Below, piece by piece: positions 18,321-26,448 of a stretch of DNA of 64,000 nt. Source of the stretch: Escherichia coli O127:H6 str. E2348/69 (GTDB taxonomy: Bacteria; Pseudomonadota; Gammaproteobacteria; Enterobacterales; Enterobacteriaceae); the NCBI RefSeq assembly GCF_000026545.1, contig NC_011601.1; one strand, written 5' to 3'. The translations under genes were made by a program, and so were the position numbers. The notes under the pieces are model-generated. The model saw nothing but the letters and a program-made list of their open reading frames with translations. It was not told the DNA's origin and did no database searches. The first letter of the stretch is position 1, and each line of letters opens with the position of its first letter.

Positions 18321-18616
18321 TTGTCTTTCTCCTGAGACTCAGCGGCCATTTTCAGATACTGTTCAGGACAGTGCGCCATGACGCGCTGAAACAATGCCAG
18401 TGCCAGGTTGCGCTGCCCTTCGTTGAATGCAGTTAAGTGCGAATCACCAGCGAAGCATGGTGAGAACACCTTTCCCCTCTCCAGCATCGACCAGATAACG
18501 CGGCGGCCTTGCTCGCTACCCATAACGAACTTGATGTCGTCGATATCACGCTGAGCCAGAAGTTGCTGTTTGGCGTCAAGCTCTGCTTTGCGTCCTTCGT
18601 CGTCGATATCCATCAT
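18317..18616 (-). CDS. Hypothetical protein (99 aa)
   Basis: ORF overlapping neighbours by 4 nt on both sides. Confidence 0.4.
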   Translation of the reverse strand: MMDIDDEGRKAELDAKQQLLAQRDIDDIKFVMGSEQGRRVIWSMLERGKVFSPCFAGDSHLTAFNEGQRNLALALFQRVMAHCPEQYLKMAAESQEKDK

Positions 18617-20283
18617 TGCTGCGGTGCTCCTGCTGCATTAGCGATAGCAGTTAATGCGCTCGGGTCGCTGGTCTGCGTTTCGCTGAGAGTCTTGGCCCCC
18701 TGCGCTGCCGCCTGACCCATAGCCATTGCCTGTGCCGCCTGAGCCTGTTTAGCTCGCTCTTCACGAATACCCTGTACCTGCTCCTGCGGAACGATGACGG
18801 TTGGCGATACGCCTGACATTTCAGAGAACGCGTCGATAGCCTGATCCACATCAAGCTTGTCGAGCGCTTCAGGTTTGAACTGCGCCAGTTGCCCGATAAA
18901 TCCAACTGTCTGCGACAGGCTGGTGAGGCCGATAGATTTCTGAGCCTGAGCCATCACAGAGATGTACTCGATACGCAGCGGCATACCCTGAAGAACGTCA
19001 GGAGGTTCGGGCAACATGTTCTTGCGGGCCATGATTGAGAACACGCGATCGATAAGCGGGTTAAGCGCTTCGTCATTCAGGCGCTCAAGCACCGGGCCAA
19101 GCATCAGCAGTTTCTCTTCCTTCATCTCGATCACCGCTTCCACCGGCATAGATCGGGTGTTGATTTTTTGCAGCATCATGAAGAGGTCAACGAAGTAGGC
19201 GCTGTTGATGGTCTGCCTAGTGTCCTGAATGTCAGCCAGCAGGTCGGCGGTATTCGGGTTTACCAGGTATGCAGGTTTGAAACCATCCTGACCGGTCAAC
19301 ACGTCGAGATATGTCACATCGCCAGGCAACAGGGAAACACGCTGATTCTTGAGCGATGTTGGGGCAACCATCGGCGGGTTAGTGGCTTTATCGATCAGCT
19401 GAGCTTTGCGCTTCTGCTCAACCTGAAGTGCTTTAACCTGACCGAGTGCCAGCATACCAGGGCAAGATGAGGCGTAAACGTCTTCGCCATTCACTTCCCA
19501 GCGCGGCGCCAGAATAGGGAATTCATCAAATCCGGATTCACGCAGCAGCTTGTCGGAGTCGCCGCCAGACTCGAAATAGACAGAGCGGTAAGGCTTGTTC
19601 TTGCTGTCCATCTTCCCGCTGTCGCGGTTGACGTTAGGTGTGATGCAGTGGTTAACCTTCACCCACGTTTCATACGTGCCGTTTTCCCACATGCCTTTTA
19701 CGGATGTGCTGACGTTATCCAGACCGAATTCCTGCACCATCTGGCGCACGGTCATGGAGAACTGGCGAATGCAGGTGTCTACGCTACCGCGCGGACTGTT
19801 AGCCAGGTAGTAACTGCCAATAGGGAAAGGCATTGTGCGGATCACGTCCTGGTCATCTTCCAGAACAGCCATAGCGCCGGTGCCGAAAGTACCCAGACTT
19901 GCGTACATAACAGGCAGTGACTGATACAAATTCGATTTGTTGAACACTTCGTTCATGCGGCGCTGCACGACTTCCAGCCAGATTTTCACCGGGCCATAGT
20001 CCATCATGTCAGGGTCAGGCGTTGCCAGTTTGAACCACGGTCGTGCCGGACTGGTGATGCCTGACATCATGCCGCTGGACAGAATTCGCTGAGCCATTGA
20101 GCCAGTGGGATCAACAATCTTGGTGTTACGGCGATCATCACGGTTTACATCAGATGTCAGAAAGCGGGAGCCACGCGGATTGATGAAGTCACTAAGATCA
20201 CGCCAATGCGATTCGAACGATGTGCGCTCATTCTTCAGCTGTGCGAGCTGCTTCAGCAGGCGCTCTTTTTCGGTTTCCGCCAT
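18613..20283 (-). CDS. Portal protein (556 aa)
   Basis: Size and position upstream of scaffold/capsid; acidic C-terminal tail. Confidence 0.65.
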   Translation of the reverse strand: MAETEKERLLKQLAQLKNERTSFESHWRDLSDFINPRGSRFLTSDVNRDDRRNTKIVDPTGSMAQRILSSGMMSGITSPARPWFKLATPDPDMMDYGPVKIWLEVVQRRMNEVFNKSNLYQSLPVMYASLGTFGTGAMAVLEDDQDVIRTMPFPIGSYYLANSPRGSVDTCIRQFSMTVRQMVQEFGLDNVSTSVKGMWENGTYETWVKVNHCITPNVNRDSGKMDSKNKPYRSVYFESGGDSDKLLRESGFDEFPILAPRWEVNGEDVYASSCPGMLALGQVKALQVEQKRKAQLIDKATNPPMVAPTSLKNQRVSLLPGDVTYLDVLTGQDGFKPAYLVNPNTADLLADIQDTRQTINSAYFVDLFMMLQKINTRSMPVEAVIEMKEEKLLMLGPVLERLNDEALNPLIDRVFSIMARKNMLPEPPDVLQGMPLRIEYISVMAQAQKSIGLTSLSQTVGFIGQLAQFKPEALDKLDVDQAIDAFSEMSGVSPTVIVPQEQVQGIREERAKQAQAAQAMAMGQAAAQGAKTLSETQTSDPSALTAIANAAGAPQQ

Positions 20284-20297
20284 CTCTGCCTACTCCG

Positions 20298-20504
20298 TTA
20301 CTGACCAAGCAGCGTTTTACCGCTGGTGTTTGCGGTTGAAGTGTCACCCTGCGCACCAGTCAGCAGAGTAGAGCTGCGCCCTGCTGCTGCGCGGCGGCGG
20401 CGCTCTTCGTCGTCACGAGAACTGACAACTGCTGCATCCTGCTCCTGTGGCGCAGCCTGTACTTCTGGCGCTGCTGGCACTGATGGCTTGCTGCCGATAC
20501 ACAT
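20298..20504 (-). CDS. Small hypothetical protein (68 aa)
   Basis: ORF immediately upstream of portal gene; Ala/Arg-rich low complexity. Confidence 0.25.
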   Translation of the reverse strand: MCIGSKPSVPAAPEVQAAPQEQDAAVVSSRDDEERRRRAAAGRSSTLLTGAQGDTSTANTSGKTLLGQ

Positions 20505-20593
20505 AGCAATAGCTCCGTACGCAATTAAATTATTACCAATTTAACCACATATGATTTATTTAGCGTAGGATATTGACACTTATAACATCAGAT

Positions 20594-20610
20594 ATTACCT
20601 TTTAGGTAAT
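20594..20610. promoter_or_regulatory. Operator-like palindrome ATTACC-N5-GGTAAT
   Basis: ATTACCttttaGGTAAT, upstream of portal operon. Confidence 0.45.
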
Positions 20611-21056
20611 TGGTTCGTGTGTTGAATTGATGAATTGCGGAGGTGGTTATGTAACCGCTTGTGCAGTAGCCCGGAGTACCGCAGCAATAAATTGGGCTTA
20701 AAAGTAAAGGCGGTGGATAAGCGGAGCATCATCTCCGCACATAACTAAAAGCGCGCTTCAGTGAATGACCTTTGAGCCTGGTCGTTAAATCCAAACGGTG
20801 GAGTGCGCTTTCAGGTGTGTAGCAGTACGGCATATGGCACATGTGCCGCAGCGGTCCGGATGGGTTCCCTTGATGCTACTTCCCCAGCCGGGTAGCCGGA
20901 ATGTGCAAGCCAGTGTTAGGTAAGCACGGACAGACGATTCACCATCGTGGCGATACGGTGTGACACCTCGGAAGAGACGAGGATGCAACGATGATAGCAT
21001 TGGGGTGACCGGTTAATCCCATGACGATAACCGATACAGGCGCAGTGCTCTCTTCG

Positions 21057-21169
21057 TTGTGGTTAGCTCAGATAGGTTAGAGCTCCATCCATGCTTGCCA
21101 TTGCTGCATGGGCGGGGAATGGGTTCCGAAAGGATCGCCGCGCAGGTTCGAATCCTGCACCACAACCCA
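21057..21169 (+). tRNA. tRNA-like element, non-canonical (possible pseudo-tRNA or structured RNA)
   Basis: 7-nt acceptor strands TTGTGGT/ACCACAA pair; canonical D-arm TAGCTCAGATAGGTTAGAGC; T-arm GCAGG-TTCGAAT-CCTGC; discriminator plus encoded CCA; but ~58 nt lie between D- and T-arms (normal ~22), including a 7-bp stem with an 11-nt loop. Confidence 0.3.
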
Positions 21170-21375
21170 ATCACGCCTTAGGACCGTGATGAAGCGCCCA
21201 TAAGAACAATGCTGTGTAGCCTTTGGCGGTGGCAGTTTCCCTTGATGCTGACCACCGTCACTTTTACACCAGAACGCCATTGCGATGACGTTGCGCTGTA
21301 AACCCGTAAGCCATGGAAGGCACCCTTGCTTCCATTTCGCCCGGTTCGTCCGGGCATTTTTTTAAGGTGATTAGA

Positions 21376-21807
21376 ATGAGTAAAGACCTGTTCGACATGA
21401 AGCGCCTTCCGGTTGACCGGGTTGCTGCGAGAGTTGTTGGTAAGGGCGTTGATTGGACGCCAAATAAAGTTATTCAAACTGGTGACAGCGATCTTCCGTT
21501 GCCAGTATTTCCTGCATATAACATTAAAAACCCGCAACAACGACGCGAAGTGCAAGCAATGATCGGAAGAAAGAGCGGGAGATTGACAATAATTGGTCTC
21601 GCGGTCACACAGGGAGCAAAAAATAAAGGGGCTCGCTATGTTGCTCGTTGTGTTTGCGGGATTTATACGTATCGCAGAGCAAAAAATTTCAAGAATAATT
21701 CTGATGATTTTGACGGATGCGAGCGCTGCAGAGAACTGTTGTTTCTCAAAAGGGAAGAAGTTAAACGCAGAACGGGAAAATGGGTTGACTGGAAAGAGCT
21801 GATGTAA
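21376..21807 (+). CDS. Hypothetical Cys-containing protein (143 aa), opposite-strand moron between terminase and portal genes
   Basis: ATG at 21376 preceded by AAGGTGA; CVCG...CERC zinc-ribbon-like motif; own terminator; opposite strand to all surrounding late genes. Confidence 0.45.
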   Translation: MSKDLFDMKRLPVDRVAARVVGKGVDWTPNKVIQTGDSDLPLPVFPAYNIKNPQQRREVQAMIGRKSGRLTIIGLAVTQGAKNKGARYVARCVCGIYTYRRAKNFKNNSDDFDGCERCRELLFLKREEVKRRTGKWVDWKELM

Positions 21808-21827
21808 GACTGTGACACGTCACAACT

Positions 21828-21852
21828 AGCCCGCCGATGCGCGGGCTTTTTC
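21828..21852 (+). terminator. Rho-independent terminator
   Basis: AGCCCGC-cgat-GCGGGCT hairpin followed by TTTTT. Confidence 0.5.
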
Positions 21853-23332
21853 ATGCATAGGGATCGTACTCTGTGAGAGCCTTGCCCTGTTGGCTCTGTT
21901 GCTGCCCATAGTTAAACTGTTTTTTGGTGACCGGCGCGGCATATGTCAGCACGTAGGCGTCGGCATCGTTCGGGGATCTGCCAAGCAACTCTTTGACTTC
22001 TTCCTTGTCCTGCAAAATCTTCCTGCTGTCCTTCAGCCTGACCTTGTACTCCGGCGCACTCAGCTCATCGGCAAGGTTCTGGCTATCCAGTTGCGCCCCA
22101 AGCTTCAGTGCGTCGCGGGCTGATTTGTACATCTCCCCGCGCTTATTGCCCATCTCGGGATCCGCGGTACCGCTTCCGAACTGAATCAGCGTCCAGTTTC
22201 GCCCCCAGTTATCGCCAACTGATTTAAGCCCGGTCCCGTACCCGTAATCGATAAACACAGCATCGGCCTGGTACTGGTCCTCGAAGTCGGCAATTATTTT
22301 GGCAAACAATACGTCGTCAGTGGTGCGTTGCCACTCCCCGAGTTTCTTACAGTGCAGTCCCTGCCGAAGATAGATAACCGCCGGGTCTTTACCCTGGTGA
22401 GACGGGTCGACGCCAAGAACTACAGCAGCGTGCTGAACCTGTGCCGGAGTAATAACCCTGCCAACAGCTGGCTGAGTCAGGCCAGACGGAATGAACTGGT
22501 TTTCAGACGCATCAGGGAAGATCCCGCGCACGCGAACCTTCACGAAGTCGCTGTCTTCGCCGTAGTCGTCCACCCACTTTTGCAGTTGCTGCTTGTTGGT
22601 GCCTTCCACGGTGCGGCTGTCAATCTGCGCGCACTTCCAGCGGTGTTTGTACTTGCGGAAACATTCACGGAAACGCCCGGTGTTACGCGTCGGGTTACCG
22701 AACGCCACCCAGATGATTTCGGTGTCTTCGTCCGTCAGCGCCCCTTCAGCTACCTCCCACACCAGATCGGCAATGTTGGATGCTTCGTCGAATACCACGA
22801 TGATGCGCTTGCGCTCGTTGTGCAGCCCTGCGAACGCCTCGGTGTTGTGTTCAGACCATGGGATTGCGTCAGCGCGCCAGCGTTTATCGTGACCGGGATC
22901 GTTGCTGTACATCGCTGTGGCGGTGCAGGTGAACCACTCTTTCGTAATAGCCAGGTTCGACCATTTGATGATTTCCGGCCATGTCTTGGTACGCAACTGA
23001 TTGTCGGTGTTGGCGGTCACCACCACCTTGCAGTCCTCGCAGGTGGACATGCCCCAGTTAATCAGCATCGAGATGAAAGCAGATTTGCCGATACCATGGC
23101 CGGATGCGCGCGCCAGCATCAAAGGCTGGTGACGCGTCGCTGGGTTCTGGAGGTGATCGCGTATCTCGCGGAAGGCGTCAGCCTGCCACTTTCTGGGACC
23201 TGTGGCGTGCGCCAGCTCTGTGCCATCCTCTCCCCACGGAAACGCGTACAGCGCATAGCCCAGCGGGTCATACGTGAACGAGGCGATATCCTCAACGAGC
23301 TGCTCTTCCGGCGACATGGCTTCGGCTGTCAT
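21851..23332 (-). CDS. terL: Terminase large subunit
   Basis: Walker A-like ARASGHGIGKS near N-terminus; size 493 aa; directly downstream of and overlapping the small-subunit gene. Confidence 0.8.
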   Translation of the reverse strand: MTAEAMSPEEQLVEDIASFTYDPLGYALYAFPWGEDGTELAHATGPRKWQADAFREIRDHLQNPATRHQPLMLARASGHGIGKSAFISMLINWGMSTCEDCKVVVTANTDNQLRTKTWPEIIKWSNLAITKEWFTCTATAMYSNDPGHDKRWRADAIPWSEHNTEAFAGLHNERKRIIVVFDEASNIADLVWEVAEGALTDEDTEIIWVAFGNPTRNTGRFRECFRKYKHRWKCAQIDSRTVEGTNKQQLQKWVDDYGEDSDFVKVRVRGIFPDASENQFIPSGLTQPAVGRVITPAQVQHAAVVLGVDPSHQGKDPAVIYLRQGLHCKKLGEWQRTTDDVLFAKIIADFEDQYQADAVFIDYGYGTGLKSVGDNWGRNWTLIQFGSGTADPEMGNKRGEMYKSARDALKLGAQLDSQNLADELSAPEYKVRLKDSRKILQDKEEVKELLGRSPNDADAYVLTYAAPVTKKQFNYGQQQSQQGKALTEYDPYA

Positions 23333-23922
23333 TCTTCACCACCAGCCCGCTCTTTCACGCGACGGCGGGCCTTAGCCATGCGGTCGGCAATGGTGACGGT
23401 GCCGGAAACTTCCAGGCGCTCTTTGAACGCATTGACGTCGACGTGCTTACCAATCAGCTCGAGGTTCTTCACCTTGTCAGGCCATTTGATTTTCTTGAGG
23501 ATGGTCTCGATTGATGTCTCATCCATGTTCATGATGGTAGAGGACAGGTCGAAACCACTCAGTGTGGTGCGCCATATCTTCGGCCACTCGCGGATAGGCT
23601 TCAGGGTGCCATCATCGTTCAGGATGTCGATCACATCCATCTGGTCGATTTCCACCAGGCGAAGTAGCACGTAATCAGCACTGACGCGCAAACGCTTGTT
23701 GCGTTCCTCCATCAGCTCGGCGATCCGTTTCTGGATGCGCTCATCACGCATCATGACACTGGCTTTAACCGCTGCCGTATTAGGCGAGAACCCTGCGTTA
23801 ATCGCCGCCTGCGTCTGATTCTCAGGGCATTTGGTATATTCCTGCGCATAAGCCTCCTGCATCGCTGTTAGGGGCTTGTACTGAGTTGATTTTCGTTTTG
23901 GTGCTTTTGGTTCTGCGGGCAT
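23329..23922 (-). CDS. terS: Terminase small subunit (197 aa from ATG at 23922)
   Basis: Basic N-terminus MPAEPKAPKRKS; ATGA overlap with terL; track ORF extends 25 codons upstream through an operator palindrome, so the internal ATG with GGTGG RBS is preferred. Confidence 0.5.
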   Translation of the reverse strand: MPAEPKAPKRKSTQYKPLTAMQEAYAQEYTKCPENQTQAAINAGFSPNTAAVKASVMMRDERIQKRIAELMEERNKRLRVSADYVLLRLVEIDQMDVIDILNDDGTLKPIREWPKIWRTTLSGFDLSSTIMNMDETSIETILKKIKWPDKVKNLELIGKHVDVNAFKERLEVSGTVTIADRMAKARRRVKERAGGEE

Positions 23923-23951
23923 TGTTACCACCGAAGTAATAATTACCGTTT

Positions 23952-23968
23952 TGGTAATAGTAACACGC
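23952..23968. promoter_or_regulatory. Operator-like palindrome ATTACC-N5-GGTAAT
   Basis: ATTACCgttttGGTAAT, 30 nt upstream of terS start. Confidence 0.45.
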
Positions 23969-24025
23969 AAAACAAAGCCGCCATAGTCGGCGGCCATTGC
24001 AATTTATTGTCGATATCGTGACATG

Positions 24026-24364
24026 TCACACTGATAATTTAGTTTCATGCCAGCCACGAGTTACCCAACATGCCGAATCACCATCGCACGGACACGACTT
24101 AACTGGTAATACATCGCCGCATTTTACGCAGCGGTTAGCACTGATTGACTTGATACGAACACGAACGCGGGCATTATCCTGACGGATAAGCAACGCGATG
24201 TACTCGCTCATATCATACGGCGCACGACCAGGGCGACGGGCGGCGCAGTTACGCGCCAGCATTTCCATTTCCTGCTCGTCGAGTTGCAATTCCATCTTGC
24301 GGTTACCGGCTTCAGCCAGACGGGCACGCTGCGCGGCTTTGCGTTCTGCTGTGGATTTAGCCAC
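24026..24364 (-). CDS. Hypothetical Cys-rich protein (112 aa)
   Basis: CVKCG...CPCDGDSAC motif; last gene before the terminase operon. Confidence 0.4.
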   Translation of the reverse strand: MAKSTAERKAAQRARLAEAGNRKMELQLDEQEMEMLARNCAARRPGRAPYDMSEYIALLIRQDNARVRVRIKSISANRCVKCGDVLPVKSCPCDGDSACWVTRGWHETKLSV

Positions 24365-26367: not shown

Positions 26368-26431
26368 GATTTACCTCTCAGGTAATTTAAAACCACAAAC
26401 GAGTTAATTTCAATAGCAATGCGCATATTTT

Positions 26432-26448
26432 ATTACCTTTTTGGTAAT
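26432..26448. promoter_or_regulatory. Operator-like palindrome ATTACC-N5-GGTAAT
   Basis: ATTACCtttttGGTAAT between P-like gene and downstream early genes. Confidence 0.45.

Follow-up and report, generated by a model that had tools for sequence, protein, structure and literature searches.

We examined a small gene at positions 21376-21807 of a 64,000-nucleotide stretch of the genome of enteropathogenic Escherichia coli (EPEC) O127:H6 str. E2348/69 (contig NC_011601.1). This whole stretch is referred to as the window. The gene lies in an epsilon15-like (Uetakevirus) prophage. The prophage is integrated at guaA, next to which its integrase gene is found, and the 3' end of guaA is also the integration site of epsilon15, phiV10 and ZX5 (PMC9782041). 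Replication genes and a CI-like repressor gene are present, and the late genes occupy the minus strand. The initial annotation of the locus drew attention to an opposite-strand gene between terL and the portal gene, and this arrangement was borne out: the gene is on the plus strand, while terS, terL, a gp3-like small gene and the portal gene are all on the minus strand (Table 1). The same annotation named the gene a moron with its own ribosome-binding site (RBS) and terminator, and it took this anatomy for the classic signature of a gene expressed in lysogens. We tentatively favor another reading, in which the gene is an exchangeable accessory gene that would be expressed early in the phage program.

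A variable gene slot with fixed frames

In a mechanical list of open reading frames (ORFs), the first-ATG ORF spans 21313..21807 on the plus strand and would encode 164 amino acids (aa). Homologs and the RefSeq entry WP_000031196.1 ("hypothetical protein") begin at ATG 21376, which gives the 143-aa product described initially. ATG 21313 falls within a leader hairpin that is kept in phages with unrelated cargo; we therefore rejected it and take 21376 as the real start. The gene is genuine and under purifying selection, with a ratio of nonsynonymous to synonymous substitution rates (dN/dS) of 0.07-0.14 against the PAT1 and L054 copies, the two other known copies in this position. Its G+C content is 45.1% overall and 41.7% at third codon positions (GC3), compared with 57.0% and 69.6% for terL. 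This composition fits recent import, and we regard the gene as horizontally acquired cargo.

The interval between terL and the gp3-like gene holds at least 11 unrelated gene families, every one of which is on the strand opposite the late genes. Unrelated ORFs replace the gene in epsilon15, phiV10, SPC32H/SPN1S, TL-2011b, Tyrion, a Klebsiella phage and others, so it is not an essential assembly factor conserved in synteny. The left frame of the slot, which consists of leader hairpin E, a T7 run and AAGGTGA (TTTTTTTAAGGTGA), was kept in every genome compared. The right frame, the palindrome GTGACA(T/C)GTCAC (GTGACAYGTCAC) followed by the terminator AGCCCGCCGATGCGCGGGCTTTTT, was kept in nearly every one. 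These comparisons indicate that only the ORF between the fixed RBS and the fixed palindrome is exchanged. Since unrelated ORFs are enclosed by these same frames, RBS and terminator alike are parts of the slot and do not belong to the cargo gene. The AAGGTG motif and the hairpin with its T run are thus present as first described, but both are shared with unrelated cargo. The label of moron also holds in part: the gene is accessory, low-G+C cargo in a hypervariable slot, but it lacks a promoter of its own.

The terminator hairpin downstream of the gene has a stem of seven pairs (21828-21847), six of them G-C, followed by TTTTT. Three terminator-like sites were counted in the region against 1.8 expected, a number that is not significant by itself; the 21828-21847 hairpin is nonetheless conserved across phages. 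Inside the cargo ORF, a minus-strand hairpin at 21531-21549 (three G-C pairs and TTTTT) is weakly terminator-like. If real, it would restrict antisense transcription from the terL side, but it may well have arisen by chance. The right-frame palindrome occurs in three copies in the prophage (3732-3743, 21812-21823 and 24018-24029). A search on both strands that allowed one mismatch to the 12-bp motif returned nine matches in the window against 1.05 expected. Each of the three copies has an intrinsic-terminator hairpin within the next 2-22 nucleotides (nt); two of these lie at operon boundaries on the late (minus) strand, and one follows the cargo gene on the plus strand. The palindrome could be a site for a termination regulator or a recombination frame.

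We surveyed the cargo of this slot in sister phages. An exact match to an invariant leader 27-mer retrieved 120 further loci; terL was located in 105, and cargo was extracted from 102. This sample was not dereplicated, and the following proportions are therefore rough. Proteins of Pfam family PF13876, the Acb4 family, fill 39 of the 102 slots, Tad2-like proteins fill nine, and Acb2-like proteins fill two, which amounts to 50 slots for the three groups. Three further groups have no known function: a "YNMKLQCL" family of 61-142 aa (19 slots), membrane and coiled-coil proteins of 200-296 aa (16 slots), and phrog_3163 (three slots). The zinc-ribbon family of the gene under study accounts for four slots (the window, its RefSeq duplicate, PAT1 and L054), three of them distinct. 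The remaining ten hold singletons and five unassigned proteins.

The three named groups were recognized as follows. The cargo of the epsilon15/phiV10 type matches PF13876 with an E value of 5e-37 and gives a weak direct match to the Acb4 structure 9e4w. PF13876 has been described as the sponge family of anti-CBASS 4 (Acb4), which acts on the cyclic oligonucleotide-based antiphage signaling system (CBASS) (2024 study, PMC11722364). A 94-aa cargo protein matches the Acb2/Tad1 hairpin domain PF24729 (E 5.5e-16) and, among structures, T4 Vs.4 (PDB 7uq2, E 5.5e-8) and PaMx33 p26 Acb2. A 98-aa cargo protein matches, with E values down to 3e-15, the structures of Tad2 (PDB 8v3e, E 2.7e-14), AcrIIA7 and SPO1 Gp34.65. 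By these assignments, half of the sampled slots hold homologs of proteins shown to neutralize CBASS or Thoeris signaling. Eight representative cargo proteins gave no match to PADLOC models beyond coiled-coil noise, the ground on which the PADLOC matches of a 282-aa cargo protein were rejected. Many epsilon15-like phages and prophages carry Acb2, Tad2 or Acb4 homologs that are unannotated (loci L037, L120, L020, L126, L044, L093, L003, L015 and others); epsilon15 and phiV10 themselves carry the Acb4 family.

The leader and its predicted CI operator

Between the gp3-like gene and the cargo gene lies an 870-nt non-coding leader, and 526 of 5,426 complete E. coli genomes (~10%) contain sequence homologous to it. 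The leader contains a putative rightward promoter. Across 87 distinct sequences, the flanks of its TTGAC(A) element vary while TTGAC(A) itself is invariant and stands at a fixed spacing from a palindrome, ATTACC-N5-GGTAAT (ATTACCTTTTAGGTAAT). An octamer in the leader site, ATTGACAC, is shared with a PL-like promoter at 29515.

We interpret the palindrome as the operator of the prophage CI repressor. The window contains 17 copies where 1.9 would be expected. Operator triplets lie on both sides of the CI-like gene and overlap the PL-like promoter (TTGACA-17-GATTAT, 29515-29543), and the authors of the epsilon15 sequence annotated the leader site as "repressor". The sites in the prophage are found at 3348, 20594, 23942, 26370-26448, 28368-28772 and 29480-29634. 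Single operators precede terS (23942) and the tailspike region (3348), and another stands at the start of the gp3-portal unit. This scatter suggests that CI directly represses several distant transcription units, as with C1 of P1.

Searches for other promoters were negative. A sigma70 scan at its threshold returned nothing in the leader of the window prophage or of phiV10; the putative promoter at 20573 scores below that threshold. Nor did the scan detect one just upstream of the RBS, against which the terminator hairpin and its T run lie so closely that a promoter would have no room. By eye, nothing convincing or conserved was seen that might serve as a leftward late promoter near the operator or as an internal promoter between hairpins B and E.

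Downstream of the operator the leader is rich in predicted structure. Hairpins B, C and E keep their pairing through two-sided changes, which in hairpin E take the form of GG/CC to AC/GT, and several G-U pairs would turn into A-C mismatches if the other strand were the RNA. Hairpins B and E each carry a T run, and both score as plus-strand terminators in phiV10. Several features thus mark the plus strand as the probable functional RNA strand of the leader. Rfam searches of the region at E<=10 returned terminator look-alikes only. About 450 nt (20610-21056) are G+C-rich, filled with hairpins and highly conserved among close relatives, and no Rfam family was matched there at E<=10. In part of the homologous region of epsilon15, the authors of that sequence annotated an RNase III site, which they placed on the opposite strand. 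A direct repeat, CCCTTGATGCT, at 20862-20877 and 21235-21249 (...TTCCCTTGATGCT) flanks about 370 nt of the mid-leader, including the tRNA-like element described below. In epsilon15 a single copy of the repeat is present and the intervening segment is missing, and the mid-leader looks like a segment that was gained or lost by recombination between the repeats.

In 31 of the 52 loci scanned for tRNAs, sister phages carry a canonical tRNA-Arg(UCU) on the same strand. Its place is taken in the window by a non-canonical tRNA-like element whose acceptor stem measures 7 bp and which also has D and T arms. Its "anticodon" hairpin contains GCC and has an oversized loop, and its extra arm is ~28 nt long. 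The predicted folding energy is -44 kcal/mol (z -2.5). RefSeq labels the element "pseudogenic tRNA-Gly"; ARAGORN predicted no tRNA anywhere in the window, and 21057-21169 went unmatched by the Rfam tRNA model. A 115-nt counterpart with the same annotation lies in a prophage of another E. coli strain (L145, 2056-2170) whose leader is about 79% identical, and the element may therefore be a conserved non-canonical RNA as opposed to a product of decay. We considered and rejected an attachment-site remnant, given that the element sits in the tRNA-Arg slot of sister phages and the prophage is integrated at guaA.

Table 1. Features of the slot, the leader and the surrounding prophage, in window coordinates.
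Feature	Position	Strand	Remarks
Cargo coding sequence	21376..21807	+	143 aa; basic (pI 10) Cys4 zinc-ribbon protein; PHROG 18493; WP_000031196.1
RBS AAGGTG	21364..21369	+	6 nt before ATG 21376; part of conserved left frame
Right-frame palindrome GTGACACGTCAC	21812..21823		12 bp; conserved across slots
Terminator hairpin and T5	21828..21852	+	between convergent cargo gene and terL; kept whatever the cargo
terL	21851..23332	-	convergent with cargo gene; assigned by homology to epsilon15-like phages
terS	23329-23997	-	neighbor
gp3-like small gene	20298..20504	-	first in portal/head operon; divergent from leader
Portal gene	18613-20283	-	neighbor
Leader of rightward unit	20505..21375	+	non-coding, mosaic, conserved
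Putative rightward promoter, TTGACA-17 nt-TACCTT	20573..20601	+	TTGAC invariant in 87 distinct sequences; octamer ATTGACAC
Predicted CI operator ATTACCTTTTAGGTAAT	20594..20610		overlaps putative -10; ATTACC-N5-GGTAAT
tRNA-like element	21057..21169	+	non-canonical, 113 nt; cloverleaf, long extra arm, encoded CCA end
Leader hairpin A (ATCACG...CGTGAT)	21170..21190	+
Leader hairpin B (GGCGGTGGCAG...CTGACCACCGTC) and T run	21225..21265	+	compensatory stem changes; terminator-like in sister phages
Leader hairpin C	21263-21302	+
Leader hairpin D	21313-21335	+	contains spurious upstream ATG 21313
Leader hairpin E (GCCCGG-TTCGT-CCGGGC) and T7	21339..21363	+	stem 21339-21355; directly abuts RBS; terminator-like
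CI-like repressor gene	28826-29422
Integrase gene	35086-36339		adjoins guaA
guaA	36532-38109		beside integrase gene
Tailspike gene	555-3284
O-acetyltransferase-like gene	40-525	+	phrog_3333 (E 2e-25); beside tailspike gene, opposite strand

A zinc-ribbon protein of an uncharacterized family

The protein has an isoelectric point of 10.0, and its residues 51-110 include 14 lysines and arginines against two acidic residues. It matches PHROG 18493, a family of no assigned function, with an E value of 1.6e-63; residues 54-115 also show a weak match to PHROG 374, "HNH endonuclease" (E 2e-5). Scans against Pfam and PADLOC (both at E<=10) and NCBIfam returned no match, and no Pfam domain was found in 118 aligned relatives or in a relative with six modules. 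PDB sequence searches with two profiles yielded only a non-significant likeness to the L31 zinc ribbon. The protein is soluble and basic; by inspection it has no hydrophobic stretch long enough for a membrane span, and no signal feature was seen.

A profile search of 1.84 billion cluster representatives returned 7,410 clusters at E<=1e-3, of which 1,680 reached E<=1e-10; the clusters are defined at 50% identity, and many of the 7,410 match the zinc module only. The best 150 matches are mostly single-module proteins of 125-145 aa, although some have tandem zinc modules, up to 11 copies, and one (P0251) has two modules fused to an HNH domain. The full 130-145-aa architecture recurs among the ~1,680 clusters at E<=1e-10 and comprises an N-terminal PVxRVAARV motif, a PLP motif, the zinc module and a C-terminal RRTG helix. 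Residues C92, C94, C115, C118 and R100 are invariant in the 118 relatives, a further sign that the gene is genuine. In a collection of 5.8 billion proteins, all relatives were named "hypothetical". The family is large, has neither a Pfam entry nor a solved relative, and is entirely uncharacterized.

An AlphaFold2 model built from a deep alignment reached a predicted local distance difference test (pLDDT) score of 88. The modeled fold has a short N-terminal helix, a helix at residues 53-62, a three-stranded sheet that bears the C-x-C and C-x-x-C pairs, and a long C-terminal helix. Foldseek searches of the AlphaFold Database (AFDB) returned full-length "uncharacterized" relatives and, more weakly, the N-terminal modules of AP2-domain and HNH endonucleases. 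The zinc/beta-sheet module at the N terminus of HNH/AP2 homing endonucleases is homologous to residues ~51-117 (G-R/K-L-T-V-I-G ... C-x-C-x-C-G ... C-x-x-C). Those enzymes carry a nuclease domain, whereas the 143-aa protein stands alone, with family-specific N-terminal motifs and a C-terminal helix. We found no HNH or other nuclease catalytic domain in it (no Pfam domain at E<=10), and the chain stops 26 residues past the zinc site. We infer that the protein is a basic, zinc-stabilized module with affinity for nucleic acid.

In phages other than Uetakevirus, the gene belongs to a run of small early genes that overlap and point the same way. Homologs lie between cI and int in Salmonella prophages, after an MT-A70 methylase, beside NinX, between a helicase and a RecA-dependent nuclease, between NinG and the Q antiterminator, and between a zf-DksA protein and YbcO/RusA. 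Klebsiella phage SopranoGao, a Proteus phage and Vibrio phages also carry homologs in their early regions. This early, nin-type habitat would fit a role in the lytic program.

Timing and function of the gene

We propose, at a probability of roughly 0.45, that 21376-21807 is an early-expressed, exchangeable accessory gene in a CI-controlled rightward unit, and that its product is a nucleic-acid-binding protein whose most likely use is counter-defense. The unit would start at the sigma70-type promoter that the CI operator overlaps. Its transcript would run through the structured leader, the tRNA or tRNA-like RNA and two leaky terminator hairpins, and the cargo, which comes last in the unit, would receive its mRNA by read-through. 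Since the promoter is overlapped by a CI site and the unit depends on read-through, the gene would be made mainly when CI is absent, that is, upon infection or induction, with a low level if any in the lysogen. Binding of nucleic acid would be the task of the zinc module, which in homing endonucleases stands beside HNH and AP2 domains. The protein would act for the phage early in the lytic program, possibly in counter-defense, as for the Acb4, Tad2 and Acb2 homologs of the same cassette. Taken on its own, the assignment of the protein as a counter-defense factor is doubtful, though possible.

Several observations weigh against this proposal. The protein has no likeness in sequence or fold to any known anti-defense protein, and its association through the slot is the only link. 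The known cargo consists of nucleotide sponges, which are acidic or neutral oligomers; a basic zinc protein is unlike these, and any counter-defense mechanism would therefore differ. The putative -10 element, TACCTT, is weak, the promoter falls short in the scan, and two terminator-like hairpins separate it from the gene. Some cargo families of the slot are membrane proteins, which are more in keeping with exclusion or defense functions. The census proportions are rough, as the slots were collected with an exact 27-mer and not dereplicated.

The slot resembles anti-defense hot spots in that Acb4, Acb2 (PDB 7uq2) and Tad2 (PDB 8v3e, 8sme) homologs occupy the same RBS-to-palindrome cassette as small, single-gene cargo. 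It differs in its cargo here, a basic Cys4 zinc protein that shares neither sequence nor fold with the Acb4, Acb2 and Tad2 sponges and does not look like a sponge-like oligomer. The gene joins two known classes, phage accessory-gene hot spots and candidate anti-defense loci. Slots that hold validated anti-defense genes are productive hunting grounds, and this one is sharply bounded by a fixed RBS and a fixed palindrome. A more specific version of the proposal, to which we give limited credence, is that the protein is the first recognizable member of a large, unnamed phage counter-defense family that acts on nucleic acid or on a nucleic-acid-sensing immune protein and not as a sponge, and that the rightward unit is a CI-controlled early "immune-evasion operon". 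If so, counter-defense would supply a name for a large group of zinc proteins, and an inhibitor with a different mechanism would be added to those known. A role as replacement or decoy against tRNA-cleaving defenses would then be possible for the tRNA or tRNA-like element, and the YNMKLQCL family, the membrane and coiled-coil proteins and phrog_3163 would be further counter-defense candidates. Literature searches on the E2348/69 prophage, the protein accession, Uetakevirus and anti-defense zinc ribbons found nothing on this locus.

A rival account, somewhat unlikely in our judgment, is that the gene encodes a nin-type early accessory zinc protein that binds DNA or RNA, serves recombination, replication restart or the control of transcription or translation, and merely landed in the slot, without any tie to immunity. 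The lambdoid homologs speak for it, as they lie between NinG and Q, near NinX, YbcO, RusA, a helicase and a RecA-dependent nuclease, and also after methyltransferases. So do the basic character of the module, its presence in the DNA-targeting parts of HNH and AP2 endonucleases, and the weak L31 likeness. The distant homologs are genes of the lambdoid nin and early-left regions (the NinE, NinX, NinG and RusA area), translationally coupled and co-directional with their neighbors; 21376-21807, unlike these, sits in the terL-portal cassette outside the early operons. In Uetakevirus the gene is dispensable and rare, as its few occurrences in the census attest, and the cassette otherwise carries mostly immune-evasion homologs. 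The nin and early regions are themselves frequent homes of anti-defense genes, so the nin context does not separate this account from counter-defense.

The initial interpretation was that of a lysogen-expressed moron, transcribed from the repressed prophage and protecting or converting the host through superinfection exclusion, defense or conversion. We consider this unlikely. The moron concept of temperate phages was developed by Hendrix, Juhala and colleagues (as described in PMC3573123). The gene resembles morons of the HK97/lambda type: it is an extra gene found in some relatives at one site, lies between essential late genes on the opposite strand, deviates in composition and is followed by a terminator. 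Classic morons come with a promoter and a terminator and are active in the prophage, whereas here the RBS and terminator are those of the slot frame, no promoter specific to the gene was found, and the promoter of the unit appears to be CI-repressed. In favor of lysogenic expression, the slot is variable and some of its membrane-protein cargo could be exclusion factors, a single CI operator may repress only partially, the terminators leak, and late transcription converging from terL would shut the gene off at late times of infection, a typical property of morons.

The evidence on the other side is more extensive. No promoter-like site adjoins the gene, and the CI operator lies across the one conserved promoter element. 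The half of the sampled sister slots that hold Acb4, Tad2 or Acb2 homologs carry sponges that act for the infecting phage, and homologs elsewhere are early or nin genes. The protein itself matches nothing in PADLOC and lacks membrane or secretion features. The conventional candidate for conversion lies elsewhere in the prophage, in the O-acetyltransferase-like gene at 40-525. Thus, an opposite-strand gene with an RBS and a terminator is insufficient to call a gene lysogen-expressed; the anatomy does not imply it, and the greater part of the evidence collected speaks against it.

It is highly improbable that the protein is a stand-alone remnant of a homing endonuclease, in which the DNA-binding zinc module has lost its HNH/AP2 nuclease domain and survives close to the packaging genes as a passenger, either selfish or neutral: the PHROG 374 match, the HNH fusion in P0251, the AP2/HNH hits in Foldseek and the fact that free-standing endonucleases often lie near terminase genes are in its favor, but the full architecture is kept in ~1,680 clusters and under purifying selection, which is not decay, no nuclease domain or remnant was found nearby, and the site is that of a general cassette slot, not one used for endonuclease insertion.

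Two other genes of the prophage deserve mention. The O-acetyltransferase-like gene is a candidate for serotype conversion by the prophage, as in phiV10; the ORF lies near the edge of the window and may be truncated in this view. The terL gene is named only "hypothetical protein" in RefSeq (WP_000123109.1), though by homology to epsilon15-like phages it is clearly terL. In PAT1, a Salmonella virus, terL is annotated with a length of 2,451 nt (816 aa; L001, 4409-6859), compared with 1,482 nt in the window prophage and epsilon15. The additional length could represent an intein, an inserted endonuclease or a fused ORF.

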